A stretch of 48,483 bases of DNA from Chthoniobacterales bacterium (GTDB lineage: Bacteria; Verrucomicrobiota; Verrucomicrobiia; Chthoniobacterales; Chthoniobacteraceae), in contig JBGTNO010000018.1 in NCBI GenBank assembly GCA_041743065.1, positions 1 to 48,483 on the forward strand, given 5' to 3'. The notes below the pieces were generated by a model. That model was not told where the DNA came from, did not search any database, and worked only from the letters and a program-made list of their open reading frames with translations. Numbering within the stretch: the first letter of the stretch is position 1; the number at the start of each line of letters is the position of its first letter. Both the position numbers and the translations under genes were made by a program. Positions 377 to 14,651 of this stretch are shown here, in pieces.

Positions 377-450
377 CGCGGTCATCGTTCAAGAGCAGGA
401 TGCCTGGTTGCCAATCAGGCGATGCCGGTGCAATTCCGGCTGACCGCACC
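377..450 (+). tRNA. tRNA-Gly(GCC), non-canonical T-loop
   Basis: Acceptor GCGGTCA/TGACCGC; anticodon arm CCTGG-TTGCCAA-TCAGG; T arm GCCGG-TGCAATT-CCGGC; A73-CCA encoded. D-loop AAGAGCA lacks GG. Confidence 0.75.
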
Positions 451-473
451 ATTTTTCACTCATCATTATACCA

Positions 474-547
474 TACGGCGGGCGCCAGCTTGCGCAGCTC
501 GGTCTCCAAAACCAAGTGGGCTCGGGGCAGCACCGAGACGCCGTGCC
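474..547 (+). tRNA. tRNA-Trp(CCA), non-canonical T-loop
   Basis: Acceptor ACGGCGG/ACGCCGT (7:66 G.A); anticodon loop CTCCAAA; T arm CTCGG-GGCAGCA-CCGAG; G73-CCA. D region is irregular. Confidence 0.6.
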
Positions 548-559
548 ACTATTCAAAAA

Positions 560-632
560 TCGCGGGGGAGCCAGATGGGAAGGCAGCGGCCTCATAAGCC
601 GTCAACGAGCGGGTTCGATTCCCGCCCCCGCC
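560..632 (+). tRNA. tRNA-Met-type (CAU), canonical T-loop
   Basis: Anticodon arm GCGGC-CTCATAA-GCCGT; canonical T arm GCGGG-TTCGATT-CCCGC; D-loop with GGG. C1xC72 mismatch followed by 6 bp (initiator-like). A73 is followed by TCA, not CCA. Confidence 0.6.
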
Positions 633-643
633 ATCAATTTTAA

Positions 644-718
644 AGGGCCGCTAGATTAGTCAGGAAATCAGCCGGTTTGCACCCGGCAGTGCGGGGAGCA
701 TAGCCCCGGCGGTCCACC
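644..718 (+). tRNA. tRNA-Ala(UGC), non-canonical T-loop
   Basis: Acceptor GGGCCGC/GCGGTCC with G3.U70; D arm GATT-AGTCAGGA-AATC; anticodon arm GCCGG-TTTGCAC-CCGGC; T arm CGGGG-AGCATAG-CCCCG; A73-CCA. Confidence 0.8.
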
Positions 719-728
719 ATTTTTGTTA

Positions 729-840
729 AATCGCGGGAAGGTTGAGAACCCGACGCAACTGCGCCTTCGATGGACGCGGAGCGCATTCTGCGTAGCCGCC
801 GGAGCGGCAAAACCCGGGGAGTTTGGCTCCCGCCGATGCC
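729..840 (+). ncRNA. oversized tRNA-like unit, fold ambiguous
   Basis: 112 nt ending GCCGATG-CCA. Contains D arm GCGG-AGCGCATT-CTGC (775-790) and hairpin GCCGC-CGGA-GCGGC (794-807), homologous to unit 1796-1869. Acceptor pairing only 5/7; no 7-nt anticodon loop found. Confidence 0.3.
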
Positions 841-853
841 ATAGCGTTTCCCT

Positions 854-926
854 CTGTGAAGGGATGCGCTATCGCGCAGGCGTTCATAAGCTCTCTTATC
901 GTGGTGCGACTCCACGTCCCGCAACC
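854..926 (+). tRNA. degenerate tRNA-like unit with CAU loop
   Basis: T arm CGTGG-TGCGACT-CCACG; A73-CCA; loop TTCATAA. The anticodon stem has 2 mismatches and the acceptor needs a 2-nt bulge. Confidence 0.35.
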
Positions 927-934
927 ATTTCAGA

Positions 935-1022
935 TGCGGCGGTAGATCGCTAAAGACGCGAACCGGTCTGTAAAACCGGAGTCCTATCGGGCCGGTCGGG
1001 AGCGTTACCCGGACGCCGCACC
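935..1022 (+). tRNA. tRNA-Tyr(GUA), class II
   Basis: Acceptor GCGGCGG/ACGCCGC (7:66 G.A); anticodon arm CCGGT-CTGTAAA-ACCGG; 16-nt variable arm; T arm TCGGG-AGCGTTA-CCCGG; A73-CCA. Confidence 0.7.
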
Positions 1023-1023
1023 A

Positions 1024-1099
1024 CGGTCGTGGAGAGGATCAGCAGACTCGCCTGCCCGTCAAGCAGGAGACAGCGGGGGCAGCACCCGTCACGACCGCC
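1024..1099 (+). tRNA. tRNA-Asp(GUC), C33
   Basis: Acceptor GGTCGTG/CACGACC; anticodon arm CCTGC-CCGTCAA-GCAGG; T arm GCGGG-GGCAGCA-CCCGT; G73-CCA. Confidence 0.8.
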
Positions 1100-1108
1100 A
1101 TTTTCAGA

Positions 1109-1183
1109 CTTCCCCGTAGCTCAGCAGAAGAGCGCCGCTCTGCGAAGGCGGAGGCCGCTGGTGCGACTCCAGCCGGGGAAACC
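1109..1183 (+). tRNA. tRNA-Arg(GCG)
   Basis: Acceptor TTCCCCG/CGGGGAA; D arm GCTC-AGCAGAA-GAGC; anticodon arm CCGCT-CTGCGAA-GGCGG; T arm GCTGG-TGCGACT-CCAGC; A73-CCA. Confidence 0.8.
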
Positions 1184-1188
1184 ATTTA

Positions 1189-1263
1189 TCGGGCACGAGG
1201 AAGATAGCAATCCGCGCCGCTTGGGACGGCGAGACACCCGGAGCGTAACCGGGGTGCCCGACC
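1189..1263 (+). tRNA. tRNA-Pro(UGG)
   Basis: Acceptor CGGGCAC/GTGCCCG; anticodon arm CGCCG-CTTGGGA-CGGCG; T arm CCCGG-AGCGTAA-CCGGG; A73-CCA. Confidence 0.8.
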
Positions 1264-1272
1264 ATTTTCATT

Positions 1273-1337
1273 TGCTCCCGTGGCCGAGCAGAACAGAGGC
1301 ATCCGTCTTCTAAACGGAACAACGCAGGTGCAATTGC
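1273..1337 (+). pseudogene. 3'-truncated tRNA-Arg(UCU)-like unit
   Basis: 5' acceptor strand GCTCCCG; D arm GCC-(12 nt)-GGC; anticodon arm TCCGT-CTTCTAA-ACGGA; T-like hairpin CGCAG-GTGCAA-TTGCG. No complementary 3' strand before the next unit. Confidence 0.4.
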
Positions 1338-1416
1338 GGCTCCAGCCGCTATGCAATTTCCGCTCCGCGCCATGAGGGGGTGTGCTATCGCACCGGGCGT
1401 TCCTGCCGGGAGTGCC
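1338..1416 (+). pseudogene. degenerate tRNA-like unit, anticodon not assignable
   Basis: 3' end CGGGAGT-G-CCA pairs 6/7 with GCTCCAG (1338-1344) and 7/7 with GCTCCCG (1273-1279). Internal arms are poorly formed. Confidence 0.3.
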
Positions 1417-1431
1417 ATTTCAAAATTCCAA

Positions 1432-1506
1432 TTCCTCTCAATGCACAAAGTGTGCAGCCCGCCTGTTAAGCGGTGTGAGCCTGGTGCGATTCCAGGGGGA
1501 GGAGCC
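1432..1506 (+). tRNA. tRNA-Asn(GUU)
   Basis: Acceptor TCCTCTC/GGGAGGA; D arm TGCA-CAAAGTG-TGCA; anticodon loop CTGTTAA; T arm CCTGG-TGCGATT-CCAGG; G73-CCA. Confidence 0.8.
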
Positions 1507-1510
1507 ATTT

Positions 1511-1598
1511 TGGACAGTCAACCGGACCAGCGTGCCGGCGCCGGCCTGAACCCGGATGGAGCCGCAAGGCTTGAGGAGCATGTCCTCGGCTGTCCGCC
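1511..1598 (+). tRNA. tRNA-Ser(UGA), class II, C33
   Basis: Acceptor GGACAGT/GCTGTCC; anticodon stem CCGG/CCGG with loop CCTGAAC; variable arm AGCC-GCAA-GGCT; T arm TGAGG-AGCATGT-CCTCG. G73 is followed by CCC, not CCA. Confidence 0.65.
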
Positions 1599-1601
1599 CT
1601 T

Positions 1602-1725
1602 TTCCCGCGGTGTAACAGGCACACCTCGCGATTTCATAAATCGCAGATCTGGGTGCGATTGCCGCTTTAGGTTCGAAAGTAATTCAGGGGGGCTAACTCG
1701 CGTTGGCCGGTTCCCGGCGGGATCC
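1602..1725 (+). ncRNA. oversized (124 nt) tRNA-like unit with CAU anticodon arm
   Basis: Anticodon arm GCGAT-TTCATAA-ATCGC; T-like arm around TGCGATT with a G.G closing pair. 3' end GGCGGGA-T-CCA (1715-1725) pairs 6/7 with TCCCGCG (1602-1608). Confidence 0.35.
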
Positions 1726-1732
1726 AATTTCT

Positions 1733-1795
1733 CGCCCGCATGGTGCAAAAGCAGCACGTCTGGTTCTCAGCCAGAATGCTATGCGCGGAAGCGCT
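1733..1795 (+). pseudogene. tRNA-Glu(CUC)-like 5' body without own 3' acceptor strand
   Basis: GCCCGCA; D arm GTGC-AAAAGCA-GCAC; anticodon arm TCTGG-TTCTCAG-CCAGA; then GCGC-GGAA-GCGC hairpin in place of a T arm. Confidence 0.4.
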
Positions 1796-1869
1796 CACCT
1801 GCAACGCGGAGCGGTGACTGCATGGCGGCAGGAGCCGCAACACTCGGAGCATTACCAGGTGCGGGTGCC
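1796..1869 (+). ncRNA. anticodon-less tRNA-like RNA
   Basis: Acceptor ACCTGCA/TGCGGGT (7 bp); D arm GCGG-AGCGGTGA-CTGC; T arm CTCGG-AGCATTA-CCAGG; G73-CCC. The anticodon position holds GCGGC-AGGA-GCCGC (5 bp plus tetraloop). Confidence 0.45.
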
Positions 1870-1874
1870 CCTTT

Positions 1875-1948
1875 CCCCTCCATAGCTCAAAAGCAGAGCA
1901 CCCGGCCGATAACCGGGCGACCGGGGAGCATTACCTCGTGGAGGGACC
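1875..1948 (+). tRNA. tRNA-Ile(GAU), C33
   Basis: Acceptor CCCTCCA/TGGAGGG; D arm GCTC-AAAAGCA-GAGC; anticodon arm CCCGG-CCGATAA-CCGGG; T arm CGGGG-AGCATTA-CCTCG; A73-CCA. Confidence 0.8.
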
Positions 1949-1952
1949 ACTC

Positions 1953-2027
1953 TGGCTGCGTAGCTGAGAGAGATTAGCGCCTCGCTGAAGACGAGGAGAG
2001 TCCGGCGCGATACCGGACGCAGCCACC
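1953..2027 (+). tRNA. tRNA-Phe(GAA)
   Basis: Acceptor GGCTGCG/CGCAGCC; anticodon arm CCTCG-CTGAAGA-CGAGG; T arm TCCGG-CGCGATA-CCGGA; A73-CCA. Confidence 0.8.
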
Positions 2028-2036
2028 ATTTTTCAT

Positions 2037-2111
2037 CGCGTCATTGGTGTAACAGCAAGCACGGCGGTCTTCCAAACCGCGGGCGTCGGGGCAGCACCGG
2101 CATGGCGCACC
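2037..2111 (+). tRNA. tRNA-Gly(UCC)
   Basis: Acceptor GCGTCAT/ATGGCGC; D arm GTGT-AACAGCAA-GCAC; anticodon arm GCGGT-CTTCCAA-ACCGC; T arm GTCGG-GGCAGCA-CCGGC; A73-CCA. Confidence 0.8.
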
Positions 2112-2120
2112 ATTTTTCGA

Positions 2121-2197
2121 TTCCTCCGTGGCAGAGGTCAGCAATGCACTCCTCTCGTACAGGAGATCATGCCGGGGCAGCGCCGGCCGGAGGATCC
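2121..2197 (+). tRNA. tRNA-Thr(CGU)
   Basis: Acceptor TCCTCCG/CGGAGGA; anticodon arm CTCCT-CTCGTAC-AGGAG; T arm GCCGG-GGCAGCG-CCGGC; U73-CCA. Confidence 0.8.
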
Positions 2198-2204
2198 ATT
2201 TTAG

Positions 2205-2280
2205 TGGAGGTCGTGATGTAACAGCCAGCATTCGATCCTGTGAAGATCGCTGAGCGGGGGCAGCACCCGTCGACCTCCCC
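2205..2280 (+). tRNA. tRNA-His(GUG) with encoded G-1
   Basis: G-1 (2205) lies opposite C73 (2277). Acceptor GAGGTCG/CGACCTC; D arm ATGT-AACAGCCA-GCAT; anticodon arm CGATC-CTGTGAA-GATCG; T arm GCGGG-GGCAGCA-CCCGT; CCA. Confidence 0.8.
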
Positions 2281-2290
2281 ACTTTCATAA

Positions 2291-2366
2291 GCGCGCACAA
2301 GGCAAAGTCGTCGAACCGGCGGTCTGCAAAACCGCTTTACCCGGTGCGAGTCCGGGGTGCGCGTCC
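2291..2366 (+). tRNA. tRNA-Cys(GCA)
   Basis: Acceptor CGCGCAC/GTGCGCG; anticodon arm GCGGT-CTGCAAA-ACCGC; T arm CCCGG-TGCGAGT-CCGGG; U73-CCA. Confidence 0.75.
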
Positions 2367-2371
2367 ACTTT

Positions 2372-2442
2372 TGGGGCCATCACTGAAGAGCAGGATGGCG
2401 CATTCGCATTGCGTTGATCGGGGTGCAATTCCCCGTGGCTCC
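2372..2442 (+). tRNA. tRNA-Ala(CGC)
   Basis: Acceptor GGGGCCA/TGGCTCC with G3.U70; anticodon arm GCGCA-TTCGCAT-TGCGT; T arm CGGGG-TGCAATT-CCCCG; A73; no CCA. D stem is weak. Confidence 0.65.
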
Positions 2443-2451
2443 AGTTTTTTA

Positions 2452-2526
2452 TCGGGCACGAGGAAGACAGCAATCCGCGCCGTTCGGATCGGCGAGACAC
2501 TCGGGGCAGCACCGAGGTGCCCGACC
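2452..2526 (+). tRNA. tRNA-Pro(CGG)
   Basis: Acceptor CGGGCAC/GTGCCCG (same as 1189-1263); anticodon arm CGCCG-TTCGGAT-CGGCG; T arm CTCGG-GGCAGCA-CCGAG; A73-CCA. Confidence 0.8.
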
Positions 2527-2538
2527 ACTTTTCGAAAA

Positions 2539-2610
2539 CTCCGCCAAAGCGTAGGCAGCGACGCACCCGGTCGGTAACCGGGAGAGGCCGGTGCATGCCC
2601 GGCTGGCGGA
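2539..2610 (+). tRNA. tRNA-Thr(GGU), C33
   Basis: Acceptor TCCGCCA/TGGCGGA; D arm GCGT-AGGCAGCG-ACGC; anticodon arm CCCGG-TCGGTAA-CCGGG; T arm GCCGG-TGCATGC-CCGGC. U73 is followed by CGC. Confidence 0.7.
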
Positions 2611-2623
2611 TCGCTTTTCAGAA

Positions 2624-2761
2624 TCCCGGGGAAGAGCACCGGTCGCTCGTCAGCCTCAGAAGCTGGAGGCAGTTGGTTCGATTGCCAGCGTCTTCCGACG
2701 CTGCCCTTTGGGCTGTGCTGTCGCACAGGCTGTCTCGCCACTCGCTCCAACCCCCGGAACC
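2624..2761 (+). ncRNA. oversized (138 nt) tRNA-like unit with CAG anticodon arm
   Basis: D arm GAGC-ACCGGTC-GCTC; anticodon arm TCAGC-CTCAGAA-GCTGG; T arm GTTGG-TTCGATTG-CCAGC; then hairpins GCGTC-TTCC-GACGC and TGTGC-TGTC-GCACA. 3' end CCCCGGA-A-CCA pairs 6/7 with CCCGGGG (2624-2630). Confidence 0.35.
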
Positions 2762-2767
2762 ACTTTT

Positions 2768-2843
2768 ACGCTCCGTAGCATAACGAGCAGTGCGGCGGTC
2801 TCATAAGCCGTCAGGTGCTGGTGCGATTCCAGCCGGAGCGACC
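2768..2843 (+). tRNA. tRNA-Met/Ile2-type (CAU)
   Basis: Acceptor CGCTCCG/CGGAGCG; D arm GCAT-AACGAGCA-GTGC; anticodon arm GCGGT-CTCATAA-GCCGT; T arm GCTGG-TGCGATT-CCAGC; A73-CCA. Confidence 0.8.
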
Positions 2844-2849
2844 ATCTTT

Positions 2850-2941
2850 GGGAAGTTAAAGCGGACAAGCGAGCCGCCGCCGGTTGGAAGCCGGACAGAC
2901 CTCGACTTCGAGGTTGTGGAGCATGCCCACTGACTTCCGCC
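2850..2941 (+). tRNA. tRNA-Ser(GGA), class II
   Basis: Acceptor GGAAGTT/GACTTCC; D arm GCGG-(9 nt)-CCGC; anticodon loop TTGGAAG; variable arm ACCTCG-ACTT-CGAGGT; T arm GTGG-AGCATGC-CCAC; G73-CCA. Confidence 0.75.
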
Positions 2942-2946
2942 ATTCT

Positions 2947-3088
2947 TGGGTCGCAAGCATTGCAGTGATGCAGCGGTTTGACGCTCCGGCGTCCATGCTG
3001 TCAGTGCTCCGCGCCTTTGGAGAGGGGCGCTGCGCGCGCCCTGCATTCTTAAACCGCAGAGCGCGGGGCAGCACCGTGGCGACCCACC
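2947..3088 (+). ncRNA. oversized (142 nt) tRNA-like unit, no clean anticodon loop
   Basis: GGGTCGC (2947-2953) pairs with GCGACCC-A-CCA (3078-3088). D arm GCAT-TGCAGTG-ATGC; T arm CGCGG-GGCAGCA-CCGTG (3061-3077). The interior holds hairpins GACGC-TCCG-GCGTC and GCGCC-(10 nt)-GGCGC. Confidence 0.3.
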
Positions 3089-3093
3089 ATTCT

Positions 3094-3236
3094 TGGAAGC
3101 TGAACCGGACAGCCGAGCGCAGCGAGACAGCCAGCCTAACTTCCTTTCAAAACAATGCGGGCAACCGTGCCGGGACTGTTTCGAAAACAGATCGTTCCGC
3201 CTTGCGGAATGGGGAGCATGCCCTCCGGCTTCCGCC
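3094..3236 (+). tRNA. oversized unit containing a class II tRNA-Ser(CGA)-like body
   Basis: From ~3155: D arm CGG-(9 nt)-CCG; anticodon stem CTGT/ACAG with loop TTCGAAA; variable arm TTCCG-CCTTG-CGGAA; T arm GGGG-AGCATGC-CCTC; G73-CCA. The only complementary 5' strand (GGAAGCT) sits 54 nt upstream at 3094-3100. Confidence 0.45.
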
Positions 3237-3244
3237 ACTTTTTT

Positions 3245-3321
3245 CGCCAGCGTGGATGGACAAGAAATCTCACCGCTTTTGTAAAGCGGAGGATGCGGGA
3301 GCGTTACCCGCCGCTGGCTCC
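3245..3321 (+). tRNA. tRNA-Thr(UGU)
   Basis: Acceptor GCCAGCG/CGCTGGC; anticodon arm CCGCT-TTTGTAA-AGCGG; T arm GCGGG-AGCGTTA-CCCGC; U73-CCA. Confidence 0.75.
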
Positions 3322-3329
3322 ACTTCCAA

Positions 3330-3403
3330 TTGCCCCGTGATGTAACAGCAGCATAACCGGCTCTGACCCGGTTCGCGTTGGTGCGAATCCAGCCGGGGCA
3401 GCC
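3330..3403 (+). tRNA. tRNA-Gln(CUG)
   Basis: Acceptor TGCCCCG/CGGGGCA; D arm ATGT-AACAGCA-GCAT; anticodon arm ACCGG-CTCTGAC-CCGGT; T arm GTTGG-TGCGAAT-CCAGC; G73-CCA. Confidence 0.8.
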
Positions 3404-3417
3404 ATTTCTCCAATTCC

Positions 3418-3501
3418 TGCGCCGGTAGATCATCAGCAGATCGCCGCACCGATCCGCCGCGGCGGACGGAGGCAGGCGGGGCAGCACCGCCCCGGCGCAC
3501 C
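3418..3501 (+). ncRNA. anticodon-less tRNA-like RNA with extended central helix
   Basis: Acceptor GCGCCGG/CCGGCGC; D arm GATC-ATCAGCA-GATC; T arm GGCGG-GGCAGCA-CCGCC; A73-CCA. The central arm is a long helix (3448-3468, one bulge) capped by tetraloop CGCG; there is no 7-nt loop. Confidence 0.45.
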
Positions 3502-3509
3502 ATCTTCAA

Positions 3510-3585
3510 CGCTCCCGTAGCTCAACGTATAGAGCACCGCGCTTCGAACGCGGAGGTTGCAGGCGAAATTCCTGCCGGGAGTGCC
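3510..3585 (+). tRNA. tRNA-Arg(UCG)
   Basis: Acceptor GCTCCCG/CGGGAGT; D arm GCTC-AACGTATA-GAGC; anticodon arm CCGCG-CTTCGAA-CGCGG; T arm GCAGG-CGAAATT-CCTGC; G73-CCA. Confidence 0.8.
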
Positions 3586-3592
3586 ACCCTTC

Positions 3593-3667
3593 TCCCGGCG
3601 TAGCCCAATGCAGAGACAACGAGTTCAGACCTCGTTCAGTGCGGGTGCAAGTCCTGCCGCCGGGACC
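3593..3667 (+). tRNA. tRNA with Leu anticodon CAG, class I architecture
   Basis: Acceptor CCCGGCG/CGCCGGG; anticodon arm ACGAG-TTCAGAC-CTCGT; 5-nt variable loop; T arm GCGGG-TGCAAGT-CCTGC; A73-CCA. Confidence 0.7.
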
Positions 3668-3672
3668 ATTTT

Positions 3673-3747
3673 CGCTCCCGTAGCCCAACGCAGCAGAGGC
3701 AGCCGGCTTAAACCCGGCCAAGTGTCGGTGCGAATCCGACCGGGAGC
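3673..3747 (+). tRNA. tRNA with Leu anticodon UAA, class I architecture
   Basis: Acceptor GCTCCCG/CGGGAGC; anticodon arm GCCGG-CTTAAAC-CCGGC; 5-nt variable loop; T arm GTCGG-TGCGAAT-CCGAC; A73; no CCA. Confidence 0.7.
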
Positions 3748-3755
3748 ACGAGTTA

Positions 3756-3830
3756 AGCCCGCGTAGTCCAACGCAGAGACATCCGCCTCAAAAACGGACC
3801 AGTGCAGGTGCAAGTCCTGCCGCGGGCACC
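3756..3830 (+). tRNA. tRNA with Leu anticodon CAA, class I architecture
   Basis: Acceptor GCCCGCG/CGCGGGC; D arm GTC-(8 nt)-GAC; loop CTCAAAA on stem TCCG/CGGA; T arm GCAGG-TGCAAGT-CCTGC; A73-CCA. Confidence 0.7.
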
Positions 3831-3832
3831 AA

Positions 3833-3923
3833 AGGAACGTGAACCGGACAAGCGAGCCGGGATTCTTTGCTAAGGAAATCGATCCGCGCTGCGGATTGGG
3901 GAGCATGCCCTCCGCGTTCCGCC
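3833..3923 (+). tRNA. tRNA-Ser(GCU), class II
   Basis: Acceptor GGAACGT/GCGTTCC; D arm CCGG-(9 nt)-CCGG; anticodon loop TTGCTAA; variable arm ATCCG-CGCTG-CGGAT; T arm GGGG-AGCATGC-CCTC; G73-CCA. Confidence 0.75.
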
Positions 3924-3936
3924 ATTTTCTCCGTAA

Positions 3937-4017
3937 CGACCTCTCGTGGTGTAAAGCAGCACGAACGTCCTATGCCCGTTGAACCTGAGACGCGGGTACG
4001 AGTCCTGGCGGGAGGTC
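3937..4017 (+). tRNA. atypical tRNA-like unit, possible UAU anticodon, C33
   Basis: 10-bp terminal helix GACCTCTCGT/GCGGGAGGTC; D arm GTGT-AAAGCA-GCAC; stem AACG/CGTT with loop CCTATGC; 12-nt variable region; T arm CGGG-TACGAGT-CCTG; no CCA. Confidence 0.4.
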
Positions 4018-4028
4018 TTTTCCTTTAC

Positions 4029-4104
4029 TGCCCGTGAATGCAAAGAGCCGAGCGCCTCGCCTTTCAAGTGAGACCTAGCCGGTGCGAGTCCGGCCACGGG
4101 TGCC
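4029..4104 (+). tRNA. tRNA-Glu(UUC)
   Basis: Acceptor GCCCGTG/CACGGGT; anticodon arm CTCGC-CTTTCAA-GTGAG; T arm GCCGG-TGCGAGT-CCGGC; G73-CCA. Confidence 0.75.
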
Positions 4105-4111
4105 ATTTTCA

Positions 4112-4187
4112 TGCTCGCGTAGCCCAACAGTAGAGGCACTGCGTCGAGAGCGCAGCCAGTGCGGGTGCGAATCCTGCCGCGAGCACC
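4112..4187 (+). tRNA. tRNA with Leu anticodon GAG, class I architecture, C33
   Basis: Acceptor GCTCGCG/CGCGAGC; anticodon arm CTGCG-TCGAGAG-CGCAG; 5-nt variable loop; T arm GCGGG-TGCGAAT-CCTGC; A73-CCA. Confidence 0.75.
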
Positions 4188-4194
4188 ATTTGAA

Positions 4195-4268
4195 GGGGCC
4201 GAAAGCATTAAAGTGATGCAACGGACTTTTAATCCGTCGAACGGGGAGCATTACCCCGGCGGCCCACC
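4195..4268 (+). tRNA. tRNA-Lys(UUU)
   Basis: Acceptor GGGCCGA/GCGGCCC (7:66 A.G); D arm GCAT-TAAAGTG-ATGC; anticodon arm ACGGA-CTTTTAA-TCCGT; T arm CGGGG-AGCATTA-CCCCG. A73 is followed by CCT. Confidence 0.7.
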
Positions 4269-4269
4269 T

Positions 4270-4343
4270 TTCCCGAGTCGTCTAATAGGAGGACGCCTGG
4301 CCTACACCCAGGAGTCGGGGGAGCATAACCTCCACGGGCGACC
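4270..4343 (+). tRNA. tRNA-Val(UAC)-like, C33, weak acceptor
   Basis: D arm GTC-(9 nt)-GAC; anticodon arm CCTGG-CCTACAC-CCAGG; T arm GGGGG-AGCATAA-CCTCC; A73-CCA. The 5' acceptor strand pairs only 4 bp. Confidence 0.55.
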
Positions 4344-4598
4344 ATCTTTCCACTGGACTCAGTTCCAGCAGCCGACCGGCATCGCCGGATCCGGTTCTGC
4401 ATATCGGGAGTCCAGTGTCTGGCAAATCGGCGCAAGCCGACTGGGTTCGACTCCCATCATACGGGTCCGTGACGGTGACCAGCCCGGACCCAGTCGGGGC
4501 AGCCGCGACGCAGCCTGCGCGGGAGAGCCATTGCACTTTCGCCCGTTGCCGAGCCGCGGTCGCCGTCACGGGCCACAACTTTCAACCAAGGAGGAAAC
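4344..4598 (+). other. structured non-coding leader between the array and the first CDS
   Basis: 9-bp helix ACTGGACTC (4351-4359)/GAGTCCAGT (4407-4415) enclosing two hairpins. TCGGC-GCAA-GCCGA hairpin, then a canonical T-arm-like TGGG-TTCGACT-CCCA (4441-4455). GGGTCC/GGACCC helix (4462-4490). The ...GGGAGAG-CCA motif ends at 4529. RBS AAGGAGG at 4587-4593. Confidence 0.4.
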
Positions 4599-5405
4599 AT
4601 GAACATCGAATACATCATCGGCGGCATCATGGTCGCCATTGCCATCGCAGTGGCGGTTCGCACCGTGCGTGCCCGCTACCGTCACGAATACGTCGTCGCC
4701 GAAGGTTCCGTCGCGCTGATCTACCACGAGGGCAAACTCGCCGGTCGATGGGACGCGGGCCGCCACGTCCGCTGGGGCCGCCATTACCGCGTCGATCTAA
4801 TCGACGTGCGTAAGACGCTGCTCCAGGTCCAGGGTCAGGATGTCCTCAGCGCCGACAATGTCGGCGTGAAGGTCAGCCTCGTGCTCACGACTCAGATCGT
4901 CGATCCAGTCAAGAACGTGCAGAGCGTGGACAACTACGTTCTGCATCTCTACAGCGCCGCGCAGTCGGCGGTTCGCGCCGTCGTTGCGGGCGTCGCGATG
5001 GACTCGCTGCTCAACCAGCGGGTCGCCATCAGCGGCCAGCTTCTCGAACTGCTGGCACCCCAGGCCGAGGAAATCGGCGTGAAGGTGCACGCAGTCGAAG
5101 TCCGCGACGTAATGCTGCCGGGCGACCTACGCCGCGCCTTCTCCGAAGTGCTGAAGGCGAAGCAGGAGGGCCAGGCAGCGCTGGAACGTGCCCGTGGCGA
5201 GTCGGCCGCACTCCGCAACCTTGCAAATGCGGCGCGTCTCATCGAGAGCCAGCCGGGCGTGGCAACGCTGCGCTTCCTGCAGACGCTCTCCGGCAACGAC
5301 GCAAAGCAGATGGTTGTGATGAGCGACATGTCTGCTTTCGCGCCAGTGTTCAAGGGCCGCTCCGGAAGTCGGTCGGCAACTGAAACCGAGTCGGAGGAAA
5401 CCTAA
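4599..5405 (+). CDS. SPFH/band-7 (slipin-like) membrane protein
   Basis: N-terminal hydrophobic helix, then an SPFH core (VDLIDVRK...QDVLSADNV...AVEVRDVMLP...KAKQEG). ATG preceded by AAGGAGG. Confidence 0.8.
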   Translation: MNIEYIIGGIMVAIAIAVAVRTVRARYRHEYVVAEGSVALIYHEGKLAGRWDAGRHVRWGRHYRVDLIDVRKTLLQVQGQDVLSADNVGVKVSLVLTTQIVDPVKNVQSVDNYVLHLYSAAQSAVRAVVAGVAMDSLLNQRVAISGQLLELLAPQAEEIGVKVHAVEVRDVMLPGDLRRAFSEVLKAKQEGQAALERARGESAALRNLANAARLIESQPGVATLRFLQTLSGNDAKQMVVMSDMSAFAPVFKGRSGSRSATETESEET

Positions 5406-5509: not shown

Positions 5510-6286
5510 ATGCATGGGAACGAAGTCCTCAAGCGCGTCCGCCACGCGCTCGCTCAGGTCGAGGCCGAGCGGAACGTGCGCGTGCTTTTCGCGTGCGAGA
5601 GCGGCAGTCGGGCGTGGGGCTTTGCCTCGCGTGACAGCGACTACGACGTGCGCTTCCTCTACGTCCACCGGCGAGACTGGTATCTTTCAGTCGAGGATCG
5701 GCGCGACGTCATCGAACAGCCCATCGCCGATGATCTCGACGTGAGCGGCTGGGAGCTGCGCAAGGCGCTGCGGCTGCTCCGCAAGAGCAATCCGCCGTTG
5801 CTTGAGTGGCTGAAGTCACCGGTCGTGTATCGTCACGATCCGGTCTTCGCCGCCGAGTTCGGCGCGCTGGCGGCGGAGTTCTATTCGCCACGGCGCTGCT
5901 TCGCGCATTACCTGCACATGGCCTTCGGCAACTGGCGCGACTATCTGCGCGGTCGCGAGGAAGTGAGTCTGAAGAAGTATCTCTACGTCTTCCGTCCGCT
6001 GCTCGCGTGCCGCTGGATCGAGCGTCAGCTCGGTCAGGTGCCGATGCTCTTCGCGCAACTCGTGGAGAGCGTGCTCGACGAAGCCGACGTGCGCGCCGCC
6101 CTCGCGGAACTCGTCGCGCGCAAGCAGGCCGGCGAGGAGCTGGCTATCGCGCCTTCGGTCGAAGCGCTTTCGCGTTTCATCGAGGACGAGCTGCCAAGGC
6201 TCGAGGCGCTCAACGAGCCAGACGATGCCAAGGGCGAAGTGGAGGAGCTGAACGGCTTCTTCCGCCGCTACGCGCTCGCGGCTTGA
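5510..6286 (+). CDS. Pol-beta-fold nucleotidyltransferase, RlaP/COG3541-like
   Basis: N-terminal motif LFACESGSRAWGFASRDSDYDVRFLY is typical of the RNA-ligase-associated Pol-beta NTase family. Good RBS (AAAGGAGG). Confidence 0.65.
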   Translation: MHGNEVLKRVRHALAQVEAERNVRVLFACESGSRAWGFASRDSDYDVRFLYVHRRDWYLSVEDRRDVIEQPIADDLDVSGWELRKALRLLRKSNPPLLEWLKSPVVYRHDPVFAAEFGALAAEFYSPRRCFAHYLHMAFGNWRDYLRGREEVSLKKYLYVFRPLLACRWIERQLGQVPMLFAQLVESVLDEADVRAALAELVARKQAGEELAIAPSVEALSRFIEDELPRLEALNEPDDAKGEVEELNGFFRRYALAA

Positions 6287-6500
6287 CCACGCAACTGACG
6301 CCGTCCGGAGCCATCCGTTCCGGGCGGCGTCCTCATTTTCCACGAATCCAAACCTCAACCCATCCACATCAATGCAATCACATAAATCCATCTCCAAGCC
6401 GGGAGTCTCGCTGAGGCTCTCGAACCAAACTCAATCAGTCCGCGACGACATCCGCTCCGGCTTTCTGCCGGTGCCACGCGCGCGGTCAAAAACATAAAGT

Positions 6501-7307
6501 ATGAACTCAAAAACGATTGCGAATCAGTTCGCCCGCATGGACGCACGGTTCCGTGTCGTTCGTCCAGATGACCTGCCGCGGCGGCGTCAGCGCACCGACT
6601 ACGCGCTCGATATTGTCACCGATAAGCAGGGCCAACTTTTCGAGATGCAGCTTAGCGCTGAACGCGAGGCACAGCTCGAAATCGACGTGCTTCAATGCGA
6701 GCATCACGACCGGCATTTGCTCCTGCTTGTGAAAACGCCGGAGGCGAAGGATCGCTTCCTGTGCGGACACGACGAGCGGGAGTGGTTTGTCGCCGCGGTG
6801 CCCGGCGGTGCGTCAAGCGTGGTGCAGGCGAAGGTCGCTCTGCAACCAAGTGGAGCACGAGCCGCCGCCGATAGCGCCGGGCTAAACCTGCGTCAGCGCA
6901 CCCGCCGGCACAACCGAGCCTTCATCCGTCAGGGTGAATGGTTCTTCGTGCCCGTGCCGGAACTGCGCGTGGATGAAAAGTTCATCCTGCGCAACGAGCC
7001 GATCAGTCGCGGCGGCGGAAAGCCGCACCTCGTCGCTGAGCTTCACCGCTCCGGTGGCGAGAAGGTGTGGGTCTGCTCGCGTTATCCGAACGGTCTGACC
7101 GAATCGGACTACAAGCGGACGCTCGCGGACAACCGCGAGGCGAAGCGCTGGGGCTGGCAGCAGCGCGTCCGCAATGCGGGCGTGTTTGCGCGCGGTACCG
7201 TGCGTCACCGCGACCACGCGACGATCACGCTGCACAAGTGGCACCAGGTCTGGATGAACACCGAGAACACGACTCGTCAAATGGCGAACGTCGCATTCCT
7301 CGACTGA
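6501..7307 (+). CDS. hypothetical protein, no recognisable domain
   Basis: 268-aa ORF with coding-like composition, located between the NTase and rtcB on the same strand. Confidence 0.55.
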   Translation: MNSKTIANQFARMDARFRVVRPDDLPRRRQRTDYALDIVTDKQGQLFEMQLSAEREAQLEIDVLQCEHHDRHLLLLVKTPEAKDRFLCGHDEREWFVAAVPGGASSVVQAKVALQPSGARAAADSAGLNLRQRTRRHNRAFIRQGEWFFVPVPELRVDEKFILRNEPISRGGGKPHLVAELHRSGGEKVWVCSRYPNGLTESDYKRTLADNREAKRWGWQQRVRNAGVFARGTVRHRDHATITLHKWHQVWMNTENTTRQMANVAFLD

Positions 7308-7443
7308 GGAATGGCTTCAACGCAGCCGGGGAGGGTGACAAGCCTTCCCCGGCTGCATCTTTTCGACATAAAGAACAGACACCGCTGCGCACTCGGAGTG
7401 TGTCCGCACACCGCGCTCCTACTTTTCAATACGAACCACATCC

Positions 7444-8838
7444 ATGAACAACCAAGACCTCATCCGTCTCGGCGTGCCGCAGGGCGACGCCTTGAAACTG
7501 TCTCACGAACACATGCGCCGCCTGTTTGCTGGTGGACTCGATCGCGAGCAGGTCGAGGCCGAGATCTGCGACATCGTCGCAGATCCGCCGGCTTTCTTCG
7601 CCGACGAACTGCGTGCACCGCTGGCTCGTGCCCTCTACCGGCCGGCTTTTACGCCGCGCGCGGAACTCGCGCCGTGGCGTCAGTGGGGCGAGGGCCTTGA
7701 AGCCGAGGCGGTGAAGCAGATGGCGAATGCATGTGCGCTGCCGGTCGCGGTGGCGGGCGCGCTCATGCCGGATGCGCACGTCGGCTACGGCCTGCCGATC
7801 GGCGGCGTGCTCGCGACGGATAACGCGGTGATTCCTTACGCCGTCGGCGTGGACATCGGCTGCCGTATGAAAATGACCGTCTTCGATCGGAAGGTGAACA
7901 CGATTTCCGGGCAGAAGGATCGTCTCGCGAACATCATCGAGAGCGAGACGCGCTTTGGCGTGGGCTGTGAGTTCAAGCAGCGCCGCGAGCATGACGTCAT
8001 GGATGAAGACTGGGGCGTTTCCCCGGTCACACAGCGTCTCCGTGACAAGGCTTGGGCTCAGCTCGGAACGAGCGGAAGCGGCAATCACTTTGTGGAATTC
8101 GGAACTTTCACGGTGTCGGAGCCGGTGCTTGGACTGGATCCTGGAGAATACGTGGCGCTGCTCTCGCACAGCGGGTCCCGCGGCACCGGCGCTCAGGTTT
8201 GCCAGCATTACAGCCGCCTCGCTATGGATCGTCACGCGGATCTGCCAAAAGAGCTGAAGCATCTCGCGTGGCTCTCGCTCGATGAAGCCGCTGGCCAGGA
8301 ATACTGGGCCGCAATGAATCTGATGGGGCTCTACGCCGCGGCGAACCACGCGCTCATCCACAGGCACATCGCACGCAAACTCGGCGCGCATGTGGTCCTC
8401 GACATCGAGAACCACCACAACTTTGCGTGGAAAGAGCGCCATGAAATCGCCGGCGTGGAACGTGAAGTGATCGTCCACCGCAAAGGCGCGACCCCGGCGG
8501 GCGCTGGAGTGCTGGGTATCATCCCTGGCTCGATGGCGTCGCCCGGCTACGTCGTACGCGGCAAAGGCGAGCCGGAATCGCTGACCAGCGCTTCCCACGG
8601 AGCCGGCCGCGTGATGAGTCGGACGAAGGCGATGCAGTCCTTCACGTGGAGTGCCGTAAAGAAACTCCTCTCCGAGCGCGACGTGACGCTGCTCTCCGCG
8701 GGCCTCGATGAAGTGCCCGGCGTTGACAAGGACCTCGCACCAGTGATGGCCGCGCAAACCGACTTGGTCGAAGTGCTCGGTCGATTCGACCCGCGCCTGG
8801 TGAAAATGTGCCCGAGCGGCGAACGTGCGGAGGACTGA
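7444..8838 (+). CDS. rtcB: RNA 3'-phosphate/2',3'-cyclic phosphate ligase RtcB
   Basis: Motifs GSGNHFVEFG, HSGSRGTG, NHHNFAWKE, HRKGATPA, SASHGAGR. Confidence 0.9.
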   Translation: MNNQDLIRLGVPQGDALKLSHEHMRRLFAGGLDREQVEAEICDIVADPPAFFADELRAPLARALYRPAFTPRAELAPWRQWGEGLEAEAVKQMANACALPVAVAGALMPDAHVGYGLPIGGVLATDNAVIPYAVGVDIGCRMKMTVFDRKVNTISGQKDRLANIIESETRFGVGCEFKQRREHDVMDEDWGVSPVTQRLRDKAWAQLGTSGSGNHFVEFGTFTVSEPVLGLDPGEYVALLSHSGSRGTGAQVCQHYSRLAMDRHADLPKELKHLAWLSLDEAAGQEYWAAMNLMGLYAAANHALIHRHIARKLGAHVVLDIENHHNFAWKERHEIAGVEREVIVHRKGATPAGAGVLGIIPGSMASPGYVVRGKGEPESLTSASHGAGRVMSRTKAMQSFTWSAVKKLLSERDVTLLSAGLDEVPGVDKDLAPVMAAQTDLVEVLGRFDPRLVKMCPSGERAED

Positions 8839-9426
8839 ATGATGAGTGACGTACTGAACAAAACCACAGTGCTGGTGCTGAATCGAAACTGGCAGGCGAT
8901 CCACGTCAAAACGCCAACCCAGGCATTTTGCATGATGGCCGCCGATGTGGCGACCGCCCTCGACATCGAGGACACCGGCGGCATGCGTCCAGTGAAGTGG
9001 ACCGAGTGGCTCACTCTGCCGGTGCGCGCGGACGATAACTCCGTGCGCACCGTGCATGGGGCCGTGCGTGTTCCCACGGTCCTCGTGCTGGCGAACTACG
9101 CGAAGGTGCCGAAGCGGCGCCCGAAGTTCTCCGCGAAGAACATCTGGCAGCGGGACGGTGCGACCTGCCAGTACACGGGGCGCAAACTCGCGCCCCACGA
9201 AGGCAACATCGATCACGTAGTGCCTCGTTCACGCGGCGGTAGAACCGCTTGGGAGAACTGCGTTCTCGCCCACCGCGAGATCAACTCGCGAAAGGCAGAC
9301 AGGTTGCCCGAAGAAATCGGCCTGCGTCTGCGTCGGCAACCCGCCGCGCCACGAGAACTGCCTGCCACCATGCATATTCGCAATGCGCACAGCGTACGCG
9401 ACTGGGAGCATTTTCTGAAGTCGTGA
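8839..9426 (+). CDS. HNH endonuclease
   Basis: CQYTG...IDHVVPRSRGG...NCVLAHREINSRK (HNH/His-Me finger). The start abuts the rtcB stop codon. Confidence 0.8.
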   Translation: MMSDVLNKTTVLVLNRNWQAIHVKTPTQAFCMMAADVATALDIEDTGGMRPVKWTEWLTLPVRADDNSVRTVHGAVRVPTVLVLANYAKVPKRRPKFSAKNIWQRDGATCQYTGRKLAPHEGNIDHVVPRSRGGRTAWENCVLAHREINSRKADRLPEEIGLRLRRQPAAPRELPATMHIRNAHSVRDWEHFLKS

Positions 9427-13208: not shown

Positions 13209-13216
13209 CACTTCCG

Positions 13217-13921
13217 ATGTTCACGGTCGTGCGCGGCGCGACGTGCCCCGCAATGTTGCCTTTCGCCATCTGGTGCGCGAGCTTTGCCGCGAGCATATAT
13301 ATGAGGTTCCATCCAATACTCCTTCTGCTGGCGATCACCGTATTGCCGCACACTCGCGCCGTGGGTCGCGAGTCGGTGAACGTGAACTACATGCTACGAG
13401 GCTACTGCTTCGCCGGAAGCCGTCCGGATAAGGACGCATTTGGTGGCTACGGTGGATCCGATAATCTACCCAGAAAACTCAGCGACCTGACTGTGGGAAG
13501 GGAAGGAAAGCTTTCCCTCATCGCGCTGCCGGACGAGGTTGTTCCCTTCGGCAAGTCCCACCAAGGATTTCGACTCATCCTTGTCAATCGCACCGATGGG
13601 GAAGCTCAGTTTGCGGCTTCTGACTCGCGACTTCCGATCGTCATGGAAGCGATGGATCGCGATGGGCGGTGGCGTCCGATCGAATACCTGCCCTCAAGCG
13701 GGTGTGGCAATAGCTATCATCGTGTATTTCTACCGCACAATCATTCCTGGGAGTTTATTGCGCCGAAATTTGAAGGTCGCTGGGATACGAAGTTGCGCTT
13801 CGTCCTCCAAGGGGAGAAGCCGATCTACTCGAATACATTCGAGGGGAGCATCAATCCCGGGCAGTTCACGGTAAAGCAGGGCTACGAGCCGACCGGTTTA
13901 ATGGACCCATACAACGACTAA
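13217..13921 (+). CDS. hypothetical exported protein
   Basis: N-terminal hydrophobic segment; no recognisable motif. Confidence 0.5.
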   Translation: MFTVVRGATCPAMLPFAIWCASFAASIYMRFHPILLLLAITVLPHTRAVGRESVNVNYMLRGYCFAGSRPDKDAFGGYGGSDNLPRKLSDLTVGREGKLSLIALPDEVVPFGKSHQGFRLILVNRTDGEAQFAASDSRLPIVMEAMDRDGRWRPIEYLPSSGCGNSYHRVFLPHNHSWEFIAPKFEGRWDTKLRFVLQGEKPIYSNTFEGSINPGQFTVKQGYEPTGLMDPYND

Positions 13922-13979
13922 GTATGGGCCACTGGCAGTCATGCTCCTGGCAGCGTCAACGCGTTTCAGGTAAATCGAA

Positions 13980-14651
13980 GTGAATCACGATTTCGATCAC
14001 GACGGATTTGCGATTGTCCCTGGCGTGATGGAGGCCGGATTGCGGCAGGAGGTGCTGGACACTCTCGGGCCCGCGGACGGCGCGGGTCGGCGTGGCCTCC
14101 TGAACCTTCCAGTTGTGGCCGGGTTCGCTCGTCTTAAGCGAGTCCTCGATCTCGTCCGTCCGCATGTGCGGGAAGAGCCTTTCCCGGTCCGCGCGATCTA
14201 CTTCGACAAGTCGCCTGGGAAAAACTGGCTGGTCTCGTGGCATCAGGATCTGACGCTGTCGGTTCGGGATCGCGCCGAGGTTCCGGGCTTTGGTCCGTGG
14301 AGCAATAAGGACGGCATTCCTCATGTTCAGCCACCAGTCGAGTTTCTCGAGCGAATGCTCACTGTCCGGCTTCATTTGGATGATGCCGGTGAGGAGAATG
14401 GCGCGCTGCGCGTCGTACCCGGTTCACACCGTCTTGGACGTCTTTCCGCCAAGCAGATAGAGGAGGTGCGGGCGCGAGAGCCGGATGTTCTTTGCGCCGC
14501 TTCTGCGGACGACGTGCTGCTCATGCGGCCGTTGCTTCTTCATGCGTCGAGTCGTTCGACAAGCTCCCGCCATCGCCGCGTTCTGCACATCGAGTATGCC
14601 GACTTCAACCTTCCGTCCGGTCTCATGTGGCATGAAGCCGTGCGGGGATAA
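13980..14651 (+). CDS. phytanoyl-CoA dioxygenase (PhyH) family Fe(II)/2OG oxygenase
   Basis: WHQDLT...VRLHLDD...LRVVPGSHRLG...LLHAS. GTG start. Confidence 0.75.
   Translation: MNHDFDHDGFAIVPGVMEAGLRQEVLDTLGPADGAGRRGLLNLPVVAGFARLKRVLDLVRPHVREEPFPVRAIYFDKSPGKNWLVSWHQDLTLSVRDRAEVPGFGPWSNKDGIPHVQPPVEFLERMLTVRLHLDDAGEENGALRVVPGSHRLGRLSAKQIEEVRAREPDVLCAASADDVLLMRPLLLHASSRSTSSRHRRVLHIEYADFNLPSGLMWHEAVRG

Follow-up and report, generated by a model that had tools for sequence, protein, structure and literature searches.

Uridine at position 33 (U33) and the elbow formed by G18G19 and T-Psi-C (Psi, pseudouridine) are among the most invariant features of tRNAs, and a bacterial locus in which cytidine (C33) takes the place of U33 in seven anticodon loops raises the question of whether such loops are real and, if so, why they are kept. 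The locus is a tRNA array in a Chthoniobacterales bacterium, on contig JBGTNO010000018.1 of assembly GCA_041743065.1; the whole 48-kb contig (48,483 nucleotides [nt]) was analyzed and is called the window below. We hold with high confidence that all seven C33s are real and inherited, that they belong to a mobile array of chargeable but non-canonical tRNAs, and that this array is the RNA component of a tRNA-damage-response cassette (Band-7, RlaP, RtcB, and HNH proteins) that has spread in Verrucomicrobiota and is also present in a few Acidobacteriota and at least one phage. As to why position 33 is a cytidine, our preferred answer is much more tentative.

Units were recognized with ARAGORN, with the general Rfam tRNA model, with a cloverleaf scanner of our own (a 7-base-pair [bp] acceptor stem, a D stem of 3 to 4 bp, and 5-bp stems in both the anticodon arm and the T arm, each capped by a 7-nt loop), and with R1, a covariance model that was built from the units of other genomes alone, the window being left out. 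The array and its seven C33 units are as follows.

378-4344, + strand: tRNA array of ~41 genes for all 20 amino acids, mostly with an encoded N73-CCA followed by a T-run, and mostly with a non-canonical elbow.
1025-1100, + strand: tRNA-Asp(GTC), loop CCGTCAA, C33 at 1057; G73 and CCA present; 19.6 of 21 pairs in the scanner, 56.1 bits with R1.
1512-1599, + strand: tRNA-Ser(TGA), loop CCTGAAC, C33 at 1546; variable arm long; 3' tail GCCC instead of CCA; found by ARAGORN at relaxed thresholds.
1876-1949, + strand: tRNA-Ile(GAT), loop CCGATAA, C33 at 1907; 45.6 bits with the Rfam model, 75.0 bits with R1.
2540-2612, + strand: tRNA-Thr(GGT), loop TCGGTAA, C33 at 2572; all stems perfect (21 of 21 pairs); tail TCGC, without CCA; 54.1 bits with R1.
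3940-4019, + strand: deviant unit with a TAT anticodon, loop CCTATGC, C33 at 3970; T-loop TACGAGT, without CCA; 22.0 bits with the Rfam model, 15.0 bits with R1.
4113-4188, + strand: tRNA-Leu(GAG) of class I with a 5-nt variable loop, loop TCGAGAG, C33 at 4145; 45.4 bits with the Rfam model, 57.2 bits with R1.
4270-4344, + strand: tRNA-Val(TAC), loop CCTACAC, C33 at 4302; 23.7 bits with the Rfam model and two acceptor mismatches; 46.7 bits with R1.

All seven loops are present in the sequence as an earlier note on this DNA had written them, but the coordinates that it gave for the cytidines mark position 32, and C33 lies one base downstream in each case. Its description of the 5-bp stems as perfect or near-perfect holds: five of the seven are perfect (Asp-GTC, Ile-GAT, Thr-GGT, Leu-GAG, and Val-TAC), and the other two have one mismatch each, a G.A at 27:43 in Ser-TGA and a U.C at 31:39 in the TAT unit. 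Alternative loop registers that would restore U33 were rejected, as none was found when the 7-nt loop was slid from -3 to +3: no register combines U33 with more than three stem pairs, G.U pairs counted. Covariance-model alignment, which the note had proposed as a check, places five of the C33 loops (Ile, Leu-GAG, Asp, Thr-GGT, and Val) in the same register, and the Rfam model aligns the C of Leu-GAG, Val-TAC, and the unit at 3940 opposite its consensus U33. ARAGORN calls Leu-GAG at default settings and Ile-GAT, Thr-GGT, Ser-TGA, Ile-TAT, and Val-TAC at relaxed thresholds, with the same anticodons throughout, for a total of six of the seven units. The unit that it misses, Asp-GTC, is also undetected by the general Rfam tRNA model, which shows how far the array family departs from ordinary tRNAs. 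Ser-TGA (11.1 bits) and the unit at 3940 fit R1 poorly, and their register was taken from ARAGORN and our scanner and, for the unit at 3940, from the Rfam alignment as well.

One genome per species was scanned with the Band-7 protein encoded beside the array, which yielded 80 loci, that of Chthoniobacter flavus Ellin428 included (L015; array in NZ_ABVL01000011, with C33 in Leu-GAG, Ile-GAU, and Val-GAC/CAC). Seen against these loci, the seven C33s comprise three that are family-conserved (Ile, Leu-GAG, and Val), one that is recurrent (Thr-GGT), and three that are private to the window (Asp, Ser-TGA, and the TAT unit). The loops of Ile-GAT, Leu-GAG, and Val-TAC are typical of the family and common to the closest relatives; for Ile-GAT, C33 is a family-conserved polymorphism (21 of 35 units, with the closest relatives and a phage contig among them). 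The C33 of Thr-GGT, present in four of nine family units, recurs in more distant loci, but its closest relatives read CTGGTAT. Among the private cases, Asp-GTC is the only one of 28 family Asp units with C33 and has no close ortholog; the closest relatives of Ser-TGA in a blastn search against the loci are Ser-GGA units with U33; and the ortholog of the TAT unit in locus L007 has the loop CTTATAC. Two of these three show signs of decay, Ser-TGA and the TAT unit having stem mismatches and no encoded CCA, and the TAT unit is probably a decaying copy. The 5' acceptor strand of the window Val unit pairs poorly, and the acceptor stem of its ortholog in locus L001 is perfect; the window copy may be damaged. 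Because the same C33 recurs across independent assemblies (for Leu-GAG, in 22 of 25 loci), sequencing error, which the earlier note had named as grounds for refutation, is ruled out for the conserved cases, although a read-level error is a formal possibility for the private Asp, Ser-TGA, and TAT units.

The C33 loops belong to a distinct structural family. Across the 80 loci and the window, the T-loop pattern N-G-C-R-N-N-N is found in 728 clean units on the + strand versus a single one on the - strand. The T-loop of the family has G55 in place of U, with positions 54 and 58 mostly T54/A58 and alternatively A54/T58 or G54/G58; the D-loop is without G18G19 and has an almost invariant A-G instead, a departure from the canonical combination of G18G19 with T54-Psi55-C56. 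The two loops covary: a G55-C56 T-loop goes with an A-G D-loop in 681 of 728 units (94%), a canonical T-T-C T-loop goes with a G-G D-loop in 24 of 26, most of the 45 units with G55-A56 have an A-T D-loop, and most of the 44 with G55-G56 have A-C or A-T. The 19:56 pair is thus kept by Watson-Crick covariation (G:C, T:A, and C:G), with A18.G55 replacing G18.Psi55, which argues for folding into the L-shape; judged from these sequence patterns, the array tRNAs likely adopt it. Cloverleaf pairing was assessed in 93 units from other genomes, in which 99.5% of stem cells are paired (a fraction that is partly so by construction, as these units were preselected for pairing) and double changes occur at 20 of the 21 pairs.

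Synthetase identity elements, for which we used the sets established in Escherichia coli, are retained isoacceptor by isoacceptor. Ala units have G3:U70 in 18 of 24 cases; His units have G-1 in 23 of 26 and C73 in all 26; Gln units have U1:A72 in 40 of 48 and G73 in 45 of 48; Pro units have C1:G72 in 33 of 34 and A73 in 34 of 34; and 34 of 35 Cys units have U73. All 26 Gly-GCC units combine G1:C72, C2:G71, and G3:C70, and all 21 Ser-CGA units combine G2:C71, A3:U70, and G73. The CCA end is encoded in 93 to 96% of family units. Because isoacceptor-specific identity elements and an encoded CCA are kept, we infer that the array units are chargeable tRNAs and not mere mimics.

Within this family, C33 is common and far from randomly distributed. 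Position 33 of the 728 units is T in 573, C in 153 (21%), A in 2, and G in none, and C33 is seen in more than 20 isoacceptor types of bacterial and phage arrays. In the window, it occurs in 7 of the ~41 units; among ~44 canonical-type tRNAs from the same loci and two cultured phages, it does not occur, in-array Leu-GAG excepted. It is near-fixed in Leu-GAG (17 of 19 units plus 5 of 6 copies with a canonical T-loop, or 22 of 25) and in Val-TAC (19 of 20 G55-C56 units) and polymorphic in Ser-CGA (15/21), Ile-GAT (21/35), Ala-TGC (11/19), Gly-GCC (14/26), His-GTG (10/26), Glu-TTC (13/38), Pro-TGG (8/26), and Thr-GGT (4/9). It is almost never found in Arg-GCG (1/44), Asp-GTC (1/28), or Gln overall (1/48), and never in Phe-GAA (0/38), Lys (0/48), Asn (0/35), Thr-CGT (0/34), Leu-CAA and Leu-TAA together (0/47), or Gln-TTG (0/25). 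The association between position 33 and the anticodon gives a chi-square of 337, versus 38 +/- 8.5 in within-locus permutations, none of 2,000 of which reached the observed value. Well-diverged orthologs nevertheless keep their state at this position: U33 is present in 39 of 39 Phe orthologs despite 60 of 77 variable columns and in 37 of 37 Lys-TTT orthologs despite 67 of 79, and C33 is present in 22 of 25 Leu-GAG orthologs with 41 of 78 columns variable, which indicates an isoacceptor-specific constraint on position 33. In ~10 isoacceptors, C and U swap repeatedly at this position among closely related loci. No simple anticodon rule for C33 emerged from the base at 34, 35, or 36, from anticodon GC content, or from family versus split codon boxes, apart from a weak family-box trend, and the C33 isoacceptors do not match the target sets of PrrC, colicin E5 or D, or gamma-toxin.

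The array itself is dense, with ~41 units in 3.97 kb and spacers of 8 to 16 nt between most neighboring intact units, and its 3' end lies 254 nt upstream of the Band-7 start. The inventory combines scanner units with manual parsing of the gaps. ARAGORN at default settings finds 12 units in the window, the Rfam tRNA model finds 16 at or above its gathering score, our scanner finds 25 to 28 clean units, and R1 gives 42 hits on the + strand and 3 weak ones on the - strand; standard tRNA finders overlook 60 to 70% of these genes. A promoter and terminator scan of the array was uninformative.

Several units stand out for other reasons. Met-CAT in the window (561-635) is initiator-like, with C1xC72, a canonical TTC T-loop, and a GG D-loop, and one window Leu-CAG (2625-2766) also keeps a canonical TTC T-loop with a GG D-loop. 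The in-array Leu-GAG units of loci L005, L006, L008, L014, and L015 have a canonical elbow and still have C33. All tRNA-Leu units, in the window (3594-3831 and 4113-4188) and family-wide, are class I, with a variable loop of 4 to 6 nt, and the Ser and Tyr units are long-armed; a Streptomyces phage tRNA-Leu(TAA), 83% identical, is likewise short-armed. At position 37, Phe-GAA units mostly have G37 (CTGAAGA; window 1954-2028), an archaeal and eukaryotic trait, and the common Asp-GTC loop of the family, TTGTCTG, has T37. An odd unit at 3419-3502 has good acceptor, D, and T arms (48.3 bits with R1) and an "anticodon" arm with a GCCGC/GCGGC stem and a loop of 11 nt, ACCGATCCGCC.

Immediately downstream of the array lies an RNA-repair operon, and further defense-related genes follow along the contig.

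4345-4598, + strand: non-coding element, structured and ~225 nt long, in the interval that separates the array from the Band-7 start; includes an invariant T-arm-like GGGTTCGAcTCCC.
4599-5405, + strand: SPFH/Band-7 protein, slipin-like (Pfam PF01145, E 2e-28); nearest homologs in Chthoniobacterales.
5510-6286, + strand: RlaP nucleotidyltransferase (Pfam PF10127, E 4e-92).
6501-7307, + strand: conserved 268-amino-acid protein between RlaP and RtcB, whose homologs adjoin arrays in 12 other loci.
7444-8838, + strand: RtcB 3'-phosphate RNA ligase (Pfam PF01139, E 1e-81; PHROG tRNA splicing ligase).
8839-9426, + strand: HNH endonuclease of 195 amino acids (Pfam HNH families; PHROG HNH).
19737-25308, + strand: Hen1 methyltransferase (Pfam Hen1_L, E 3e-112) and Pnkp (PNKP_ligase, E 2e-189), plus a HEAT-repeat protein.
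25507-30974, - strand: PDC-S37/Hhe-like helicase-nuclease, apparently split in two open reading frames.
45668-46846: AbiEi antitoxin-like regulator.
47739-48476: group II intron reverse transcriptase at the contig end.

RlaP adds a 3' nucleoside monophosphate to damaged tRNA before ligation, restoring lost nucleotides (PMC12776372). The HNH endonuclease is found at the array edge in ~40 loci, at 56 to 72% identity, and may serve cassette mobility or processing. The 268-amino-acid protein has no match in Pfam, NCBIfam, PADLOC, PHROGs, or PDB, and an exact-sequence look-up of the Band-7 protein returned no second contig. The element at 4345-4598 is conserved in 10 loci, in some of which no array units were found nearby; RNAalifold predicts 66 pairs for 10 sequences (the window and nine of these loci), 23 of them with compensatory changes, and its match to the Rfam Y-RNA model is weak (20.7 bits against a threshold of 80 bits). 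We consider the element a candidate Band-7-associated or Y-RNA-like RNA and a possible cofactor. Hen1/Pnkp constitute a second RNA-repair system of the contig, ~15 kb further on; the other contig genes include nicotinamide adenine dinucleotide salvage genes, LysR, and a serpin. The idea that the window is itself a phage was rejected, as it has no phage structural genes and its content resembles a bacterial defense island.

About 50 of the loci have the same kind of array beside Band-7, usually also with RtcB, RlaP, and HNH. Most are in Verrucomicrobiota, and others are in metagenome-assembled genomes (MAGs) labeled Candidatus Sulfopaludibacter and Terriglobales (both Acidobacteriota) and Candidatus Aquilonibacter, as well as in IMG/VR contigs, a patchy distribution of the horizontal-transfer type known from L-arrays. 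In three IMG/VR contigs, Band-7 is 67 to 68% identical to that of the window, and the arrays share many isoacceptors in a similar order. Two contigs that represent one virus (L081/L082, IMG/VR UViG_3300049595_005447 and UViG_3300035681_000111) encode a gpA-type large terminase (772-2595), the array (5676-9051), Band-7 and RtcB, and a lambda-type portal protein (12501-14102), placing the cassette inside the phage packaging/head gene region. These viral arrays, together with the PHROG relatives of RlaP, RtcB, and HNH, indicate that the cassette is shared between phages and bacterial chromosomes. In a search for the same elbow in cultured phages or plasmids, blastn gave single-unit similarity only, and the cultured phages matched (Streptomyces phage CeilingFan and Tunturiibacter phage Tunturi_5) have canonical TTC/GG elbows and U33. 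On the minus strand of locus L063, a Verrucomicrobiia MAG, a canonical-looking tRNA with anticodon CTA, which would read UAG, lies at 7086-7155, near the Band-7 homolog.

What, then, is the array for? The normal cloverleaf, the encoded CCA, and the kept synthetase identity elements suggest that it would act as a stand-by decoding set, co-expressed with the repair enzymes once housekeeping tRNAs are damaged, which matches what was shown for the Anabaena L-array. Within such a set, we tentatively favor the view that C33 is a context-dependent tolerance in redundant, rarely used tRNAs, a marker of a spare-tRNA lifestyle and no dedicated anti-nuclease device, while granting that this is somewhat short of probable. 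Position 33 would be held to a pyrimidine, with C permitted according to anticodon context: fixed in Leu-GAG and Val-UAC, swapping freely with U in ~10 isoacceptors, and forbidden in ~15. Loss of the U-turn contact made by N3-H of U33 would be a small cost, one that a tRNA with a robust loop and robust codon pairing could bear; C33 could then become fixed by drift from T to C in a GC-rich genome, and the three private C33s of the window would be recent mutations of the tolerated kind. Many eukaryotic initiator tRNAs carry C33. In yeast, tRNA-Leu(GAG) naturally has C33, and a C33U change makes almost no difference (PMC13492127). The C/U swapping, the exclusion of purines, and the private and decaying cases all fit tolerance, as does the fact that classical nuclease targets go without C33. 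Four points weigh against it. In Leu-GAG and Val-UAC, C33 is near-fixed across loci whose Band-7 proteins are only 45 to 70% identical, even in Leu-GAG units with a canonical T-loop, which could reflect positive selection instead; the cassette is associated with RNA repair and with a phage, just where loop changes directed against nucleases would be expected; diversifying selection would likewise produce swapping at positions 32, 33, 37, and 38; and the isoacceptor pattern follows no simple physical rule, with C33, for example, in 14 of 26 Gly-GCC units versus 1 of 44 Arg-GCG units.

The explanation that the earlier note had favored is escape from anticodon nucleases in the manner of phage tRNAs. 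In its fuller form, C33, the G55 elbow, and changes at other loop positions (32, 37, and 38) would together make particular spare tRNAs poor substrates for tRNases or tRNA-modifying toxins that recognize or cleave the region of positions 32 to 34, the cassette supplying uncleavable tRNAs while RtcB and RlaP mend the cleaved ones. The setting makes this plausible: Band-7, RlaP, RtcB, and HNH have Pnkp/Hen1 nearby, RlaP restores nucleotides lost from damaged tRNA, and a syntenic array lies between the TerL and portal genes of a viral contig. Nuclease biology offers precedents, in that CdiA-CT EC536 cuts the C32/U33 bond of tRNA-Ile-GAU, one of the C33 isoacceptors, and leaves a 2',3'-cyclic phosphate and a 5'-OH, ends of the type that RtcB joins (PMC11724271); phage tRNAs bear loop changes at tRNase sites (PMC10264068); and T-loop-targeting toxins of contact-dependent growth inhibition are mentioned in the discussion of PMC13617354. 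The near-fixation of C33 in Leu-GAG and Val-UAC would follow as well, and the few canonical tRNAs of these loci differ from array tRNAs at 32, 33, 37, or 38. Yet the classical targets are spared, with no C33 in Lys or Asn and a single case each in Arg-GCG, Gln, and Asp; U33C left cleavage by Kluyveromyces lactis gamma-toxin unchanged (PMC2275089); C33 is near-neutral in the yeast tRNA; C/U swapping between close relatives would be expected under near-neutral tolerance no less than under an arms race; among the seven C33s of the window, three are private, two of them in decaying units; and the window is a bacterial, defense-island-like contig. Evasion is possible but doubtful in our judgment. 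We regard as improbable the proposal that C33 tunes decoding by loosening the U-turn and altering wobble at position 34, so that one spare tRNA reads more of a four-codon box in a superwobble-like manner. C33 is indeed present in 104 of 326 four-codon-box units versus 49 of 402 split-box units, and family-box tRNAs with U34 often have it (Val-UAC, 19/20; Ala-UGC, 11/19; Pro-UGG, 8/26; Ser-UGA, 2/3), but the trend rests on ~40 non-independent isoacceptor lineages and has exceptions in both directions (C33 in Ile-GAU, His-GUG, and Glu-UUC; none in Arg-GCG, Thr-CGU/UGU, or Gly-UCC). Moreover, arrays usually hold several isoacceptors per box already, and C33 does not visibly change the function of yeast tL(GAG) (PMC13492127).

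There are two further explanations. That its units are non-decoding mimics, serving as tRNase decoys or sponges or as Band-7/RtcB cofactors ("b7a-tRNA"; compare Y RNA with Ro60) in which U33 is not needed, seems to us unlikely by a wide measure. A Band-7-associated tRNA-like cofactor was proposed by Burroughs and Aravind (2016), as quoted in bioRxiv 10.1101/312249, and the sponge idea has been raised for L-arrays (PMC8421152); in addition, most units are missed by general tRNA detectors, G55 precludes Psi55, and several units have insertions or no CCA. A cofactor, however, would need neither 20 specificities nor isoacceptor-specific identity elements, nor would it need Y32-Y33-NNN-R37 loops with strict U33 in many isoacceptors, and the RNA at 4345-4598 is a better cofactor candidate. 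That the C calls are assembly errors, or the array an unconstrained relic, we consider highly improbable. The decay seen in three window units (CCA missing or stems mismatched in Ser-TGA, TAT, and Val), the 50- to 75-nt insertions in approximately seven units, and the three private C33s could be taken as signs of it, but the same C33 is found in independent assemblies, purines are excluded from position 33, stems have compensatory changes, identity elements are conserved, and 728 units lie on the + strand against 1 on the - strand. Sequencing error or a pseudogene array was accordingly rejected as a general explanation and is left only for the three private cases.

The insertions deserve a description of their own. 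They are 50 to 75 nt long and occur in seven units (732-927, 1274-1417, 1601-1730, 1735-1873, 2625-2766, 2948-3089, and 3094-3238); of the mapped insertions, that of Lys-CTT separates anticodon-stem position 31 from the loop, that of Arg-TCT follows position 60 of the T-loop, and that of Glu-CTC falls within the variable region. Several share a hairpin, GGGnTGYGCTnTCGCRC, that is confined to the array, and by alignment the Lys-CTT and Arg-TCT orthologs in the phage contig are insertion-free. The insertions might represent mobile mini-elements, or else short introns whose flanks the adjoining RtcB would rejoin; minimum-free-energy folds of the insertion-bearing units revealed no obvious bulge-helix-bulge motif. 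The boldest version of the whole, that the cassette is a complete, mobile, re-engineered and toxin-proof parallel tRNA system (A18.G55 elbow without Psi55, Y33 with fixation of C33 in some isoacceptors, class I Leu, and Phe G37) and that the insertions are protein-spliced introns rejoined by RtcB, is in our opinion unlikely; if true, the splicing would be the first protein-catalyzed tRNA splicing in bacteria or phages.

Among the closest known systems are L-arrays. These can lie silent and be switched on jointly with rtcB when translation is under stress, and their tRNAs then become aminoacylated and associate with polysomes (PMC8421152). L-arrays and the array described here both consist of dozens of same-strand, closely spaced tRNA genes (supernumerary in L-arrays and presumably so here) with patchy, horizontal-type spread, both have RNA-processing neighbors that include rtcB, and both suggest a stand-by pool under translational stress or tRNA cleavage. 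Arrays of the window type differ in having the G55/A18 elbow in nearly all members, C33 in 21%, and class I tRNA-Leu and in being fused to a Band-7/RlaP/RtcB/HNH operon that is also present on a phage contig; the terms "U33," "position 33," and "T-loop" are absent from the main text of PMC8421152. The b7a-tRNA system (Burroughs and Aravind 2016, NAR 44:8525, as quoted in bioRxiv 10.1101/312249) likewise places tRNA-like genes beside Band-7/SPFH in an RtcB (plus RlaP) operon, but what the quotation describes is a single predicted cofactor non-coding RNA, for which Rfam has no family, in contrast to the ~41 units, 20 specificities, identity elements, and separate 225-nt RNA found here. With phage tRNA sets whose anticodon-loop changes evade host tRNases (van den Berg et al. 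2023, PMC10264068; T4/T5 and mycobacteriophage C1), the array shares a large mobile tRNA complement and non-canonical loop positions, and, as in T4 (Rnl1/Pnkp versus PrrC), RNA repair and ligase functions are co-encoded, one array relative lying in a phage packaging region; unlike those sets, the window is bacterial, and U33/C33 are unmentioned in that paper. Yeast tRNA-Leu(GAG) (PMC13492127) resembles the array tRNAs in combining C33 with an otherwise functional tRNA, Leu-GAG being the most consistent C33 carrier here also, and its gene is single-copy and non-essential, i.e., redundant, as the array tRNAs are; eukaryotic C33 tRNAs are, however, isolated genes, whereas C33 here extends over more than 20 isoacceptor types, in a tRNA family with a structure of its own. 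Finally, operons of Ro60 (Rsr), Y RNA (YrlA), and RtcB resemble the cassette in having a structured RNA with a tRNA-like T-arm (here the element at 4345-4598) beside RtcB, but the window has no Ro60/TROVE gene and has Band-7 in its place. In the literature searched, in which Burroughs and Aravind (2016) is represented by quotation only, there was no report of a G55/A18 elbow or of frequent C33 in bacterial arrays, no paper joining tRNA arrays with anticodon nucleases, and none naming A18 and G55 together.

The practical lesson is that standard tRNA finders underreport such genes, and array tRNAs are possible parts for orthogonal translation systems. For the biology of these bacteria and phages, hundreds of tRNA genes break the U33 and elbow rules heritably yet keep the marks by which synthetases identify them. 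An array of this kind, tied to enzymes that mend anticodon-loop cuts, is a natural experiment on the need for U33 and Psi55, and the cultured Chthoniobacter flavus provides a tractable system for asking whether spare tRNA arrays are toxin-resistant back-ups.

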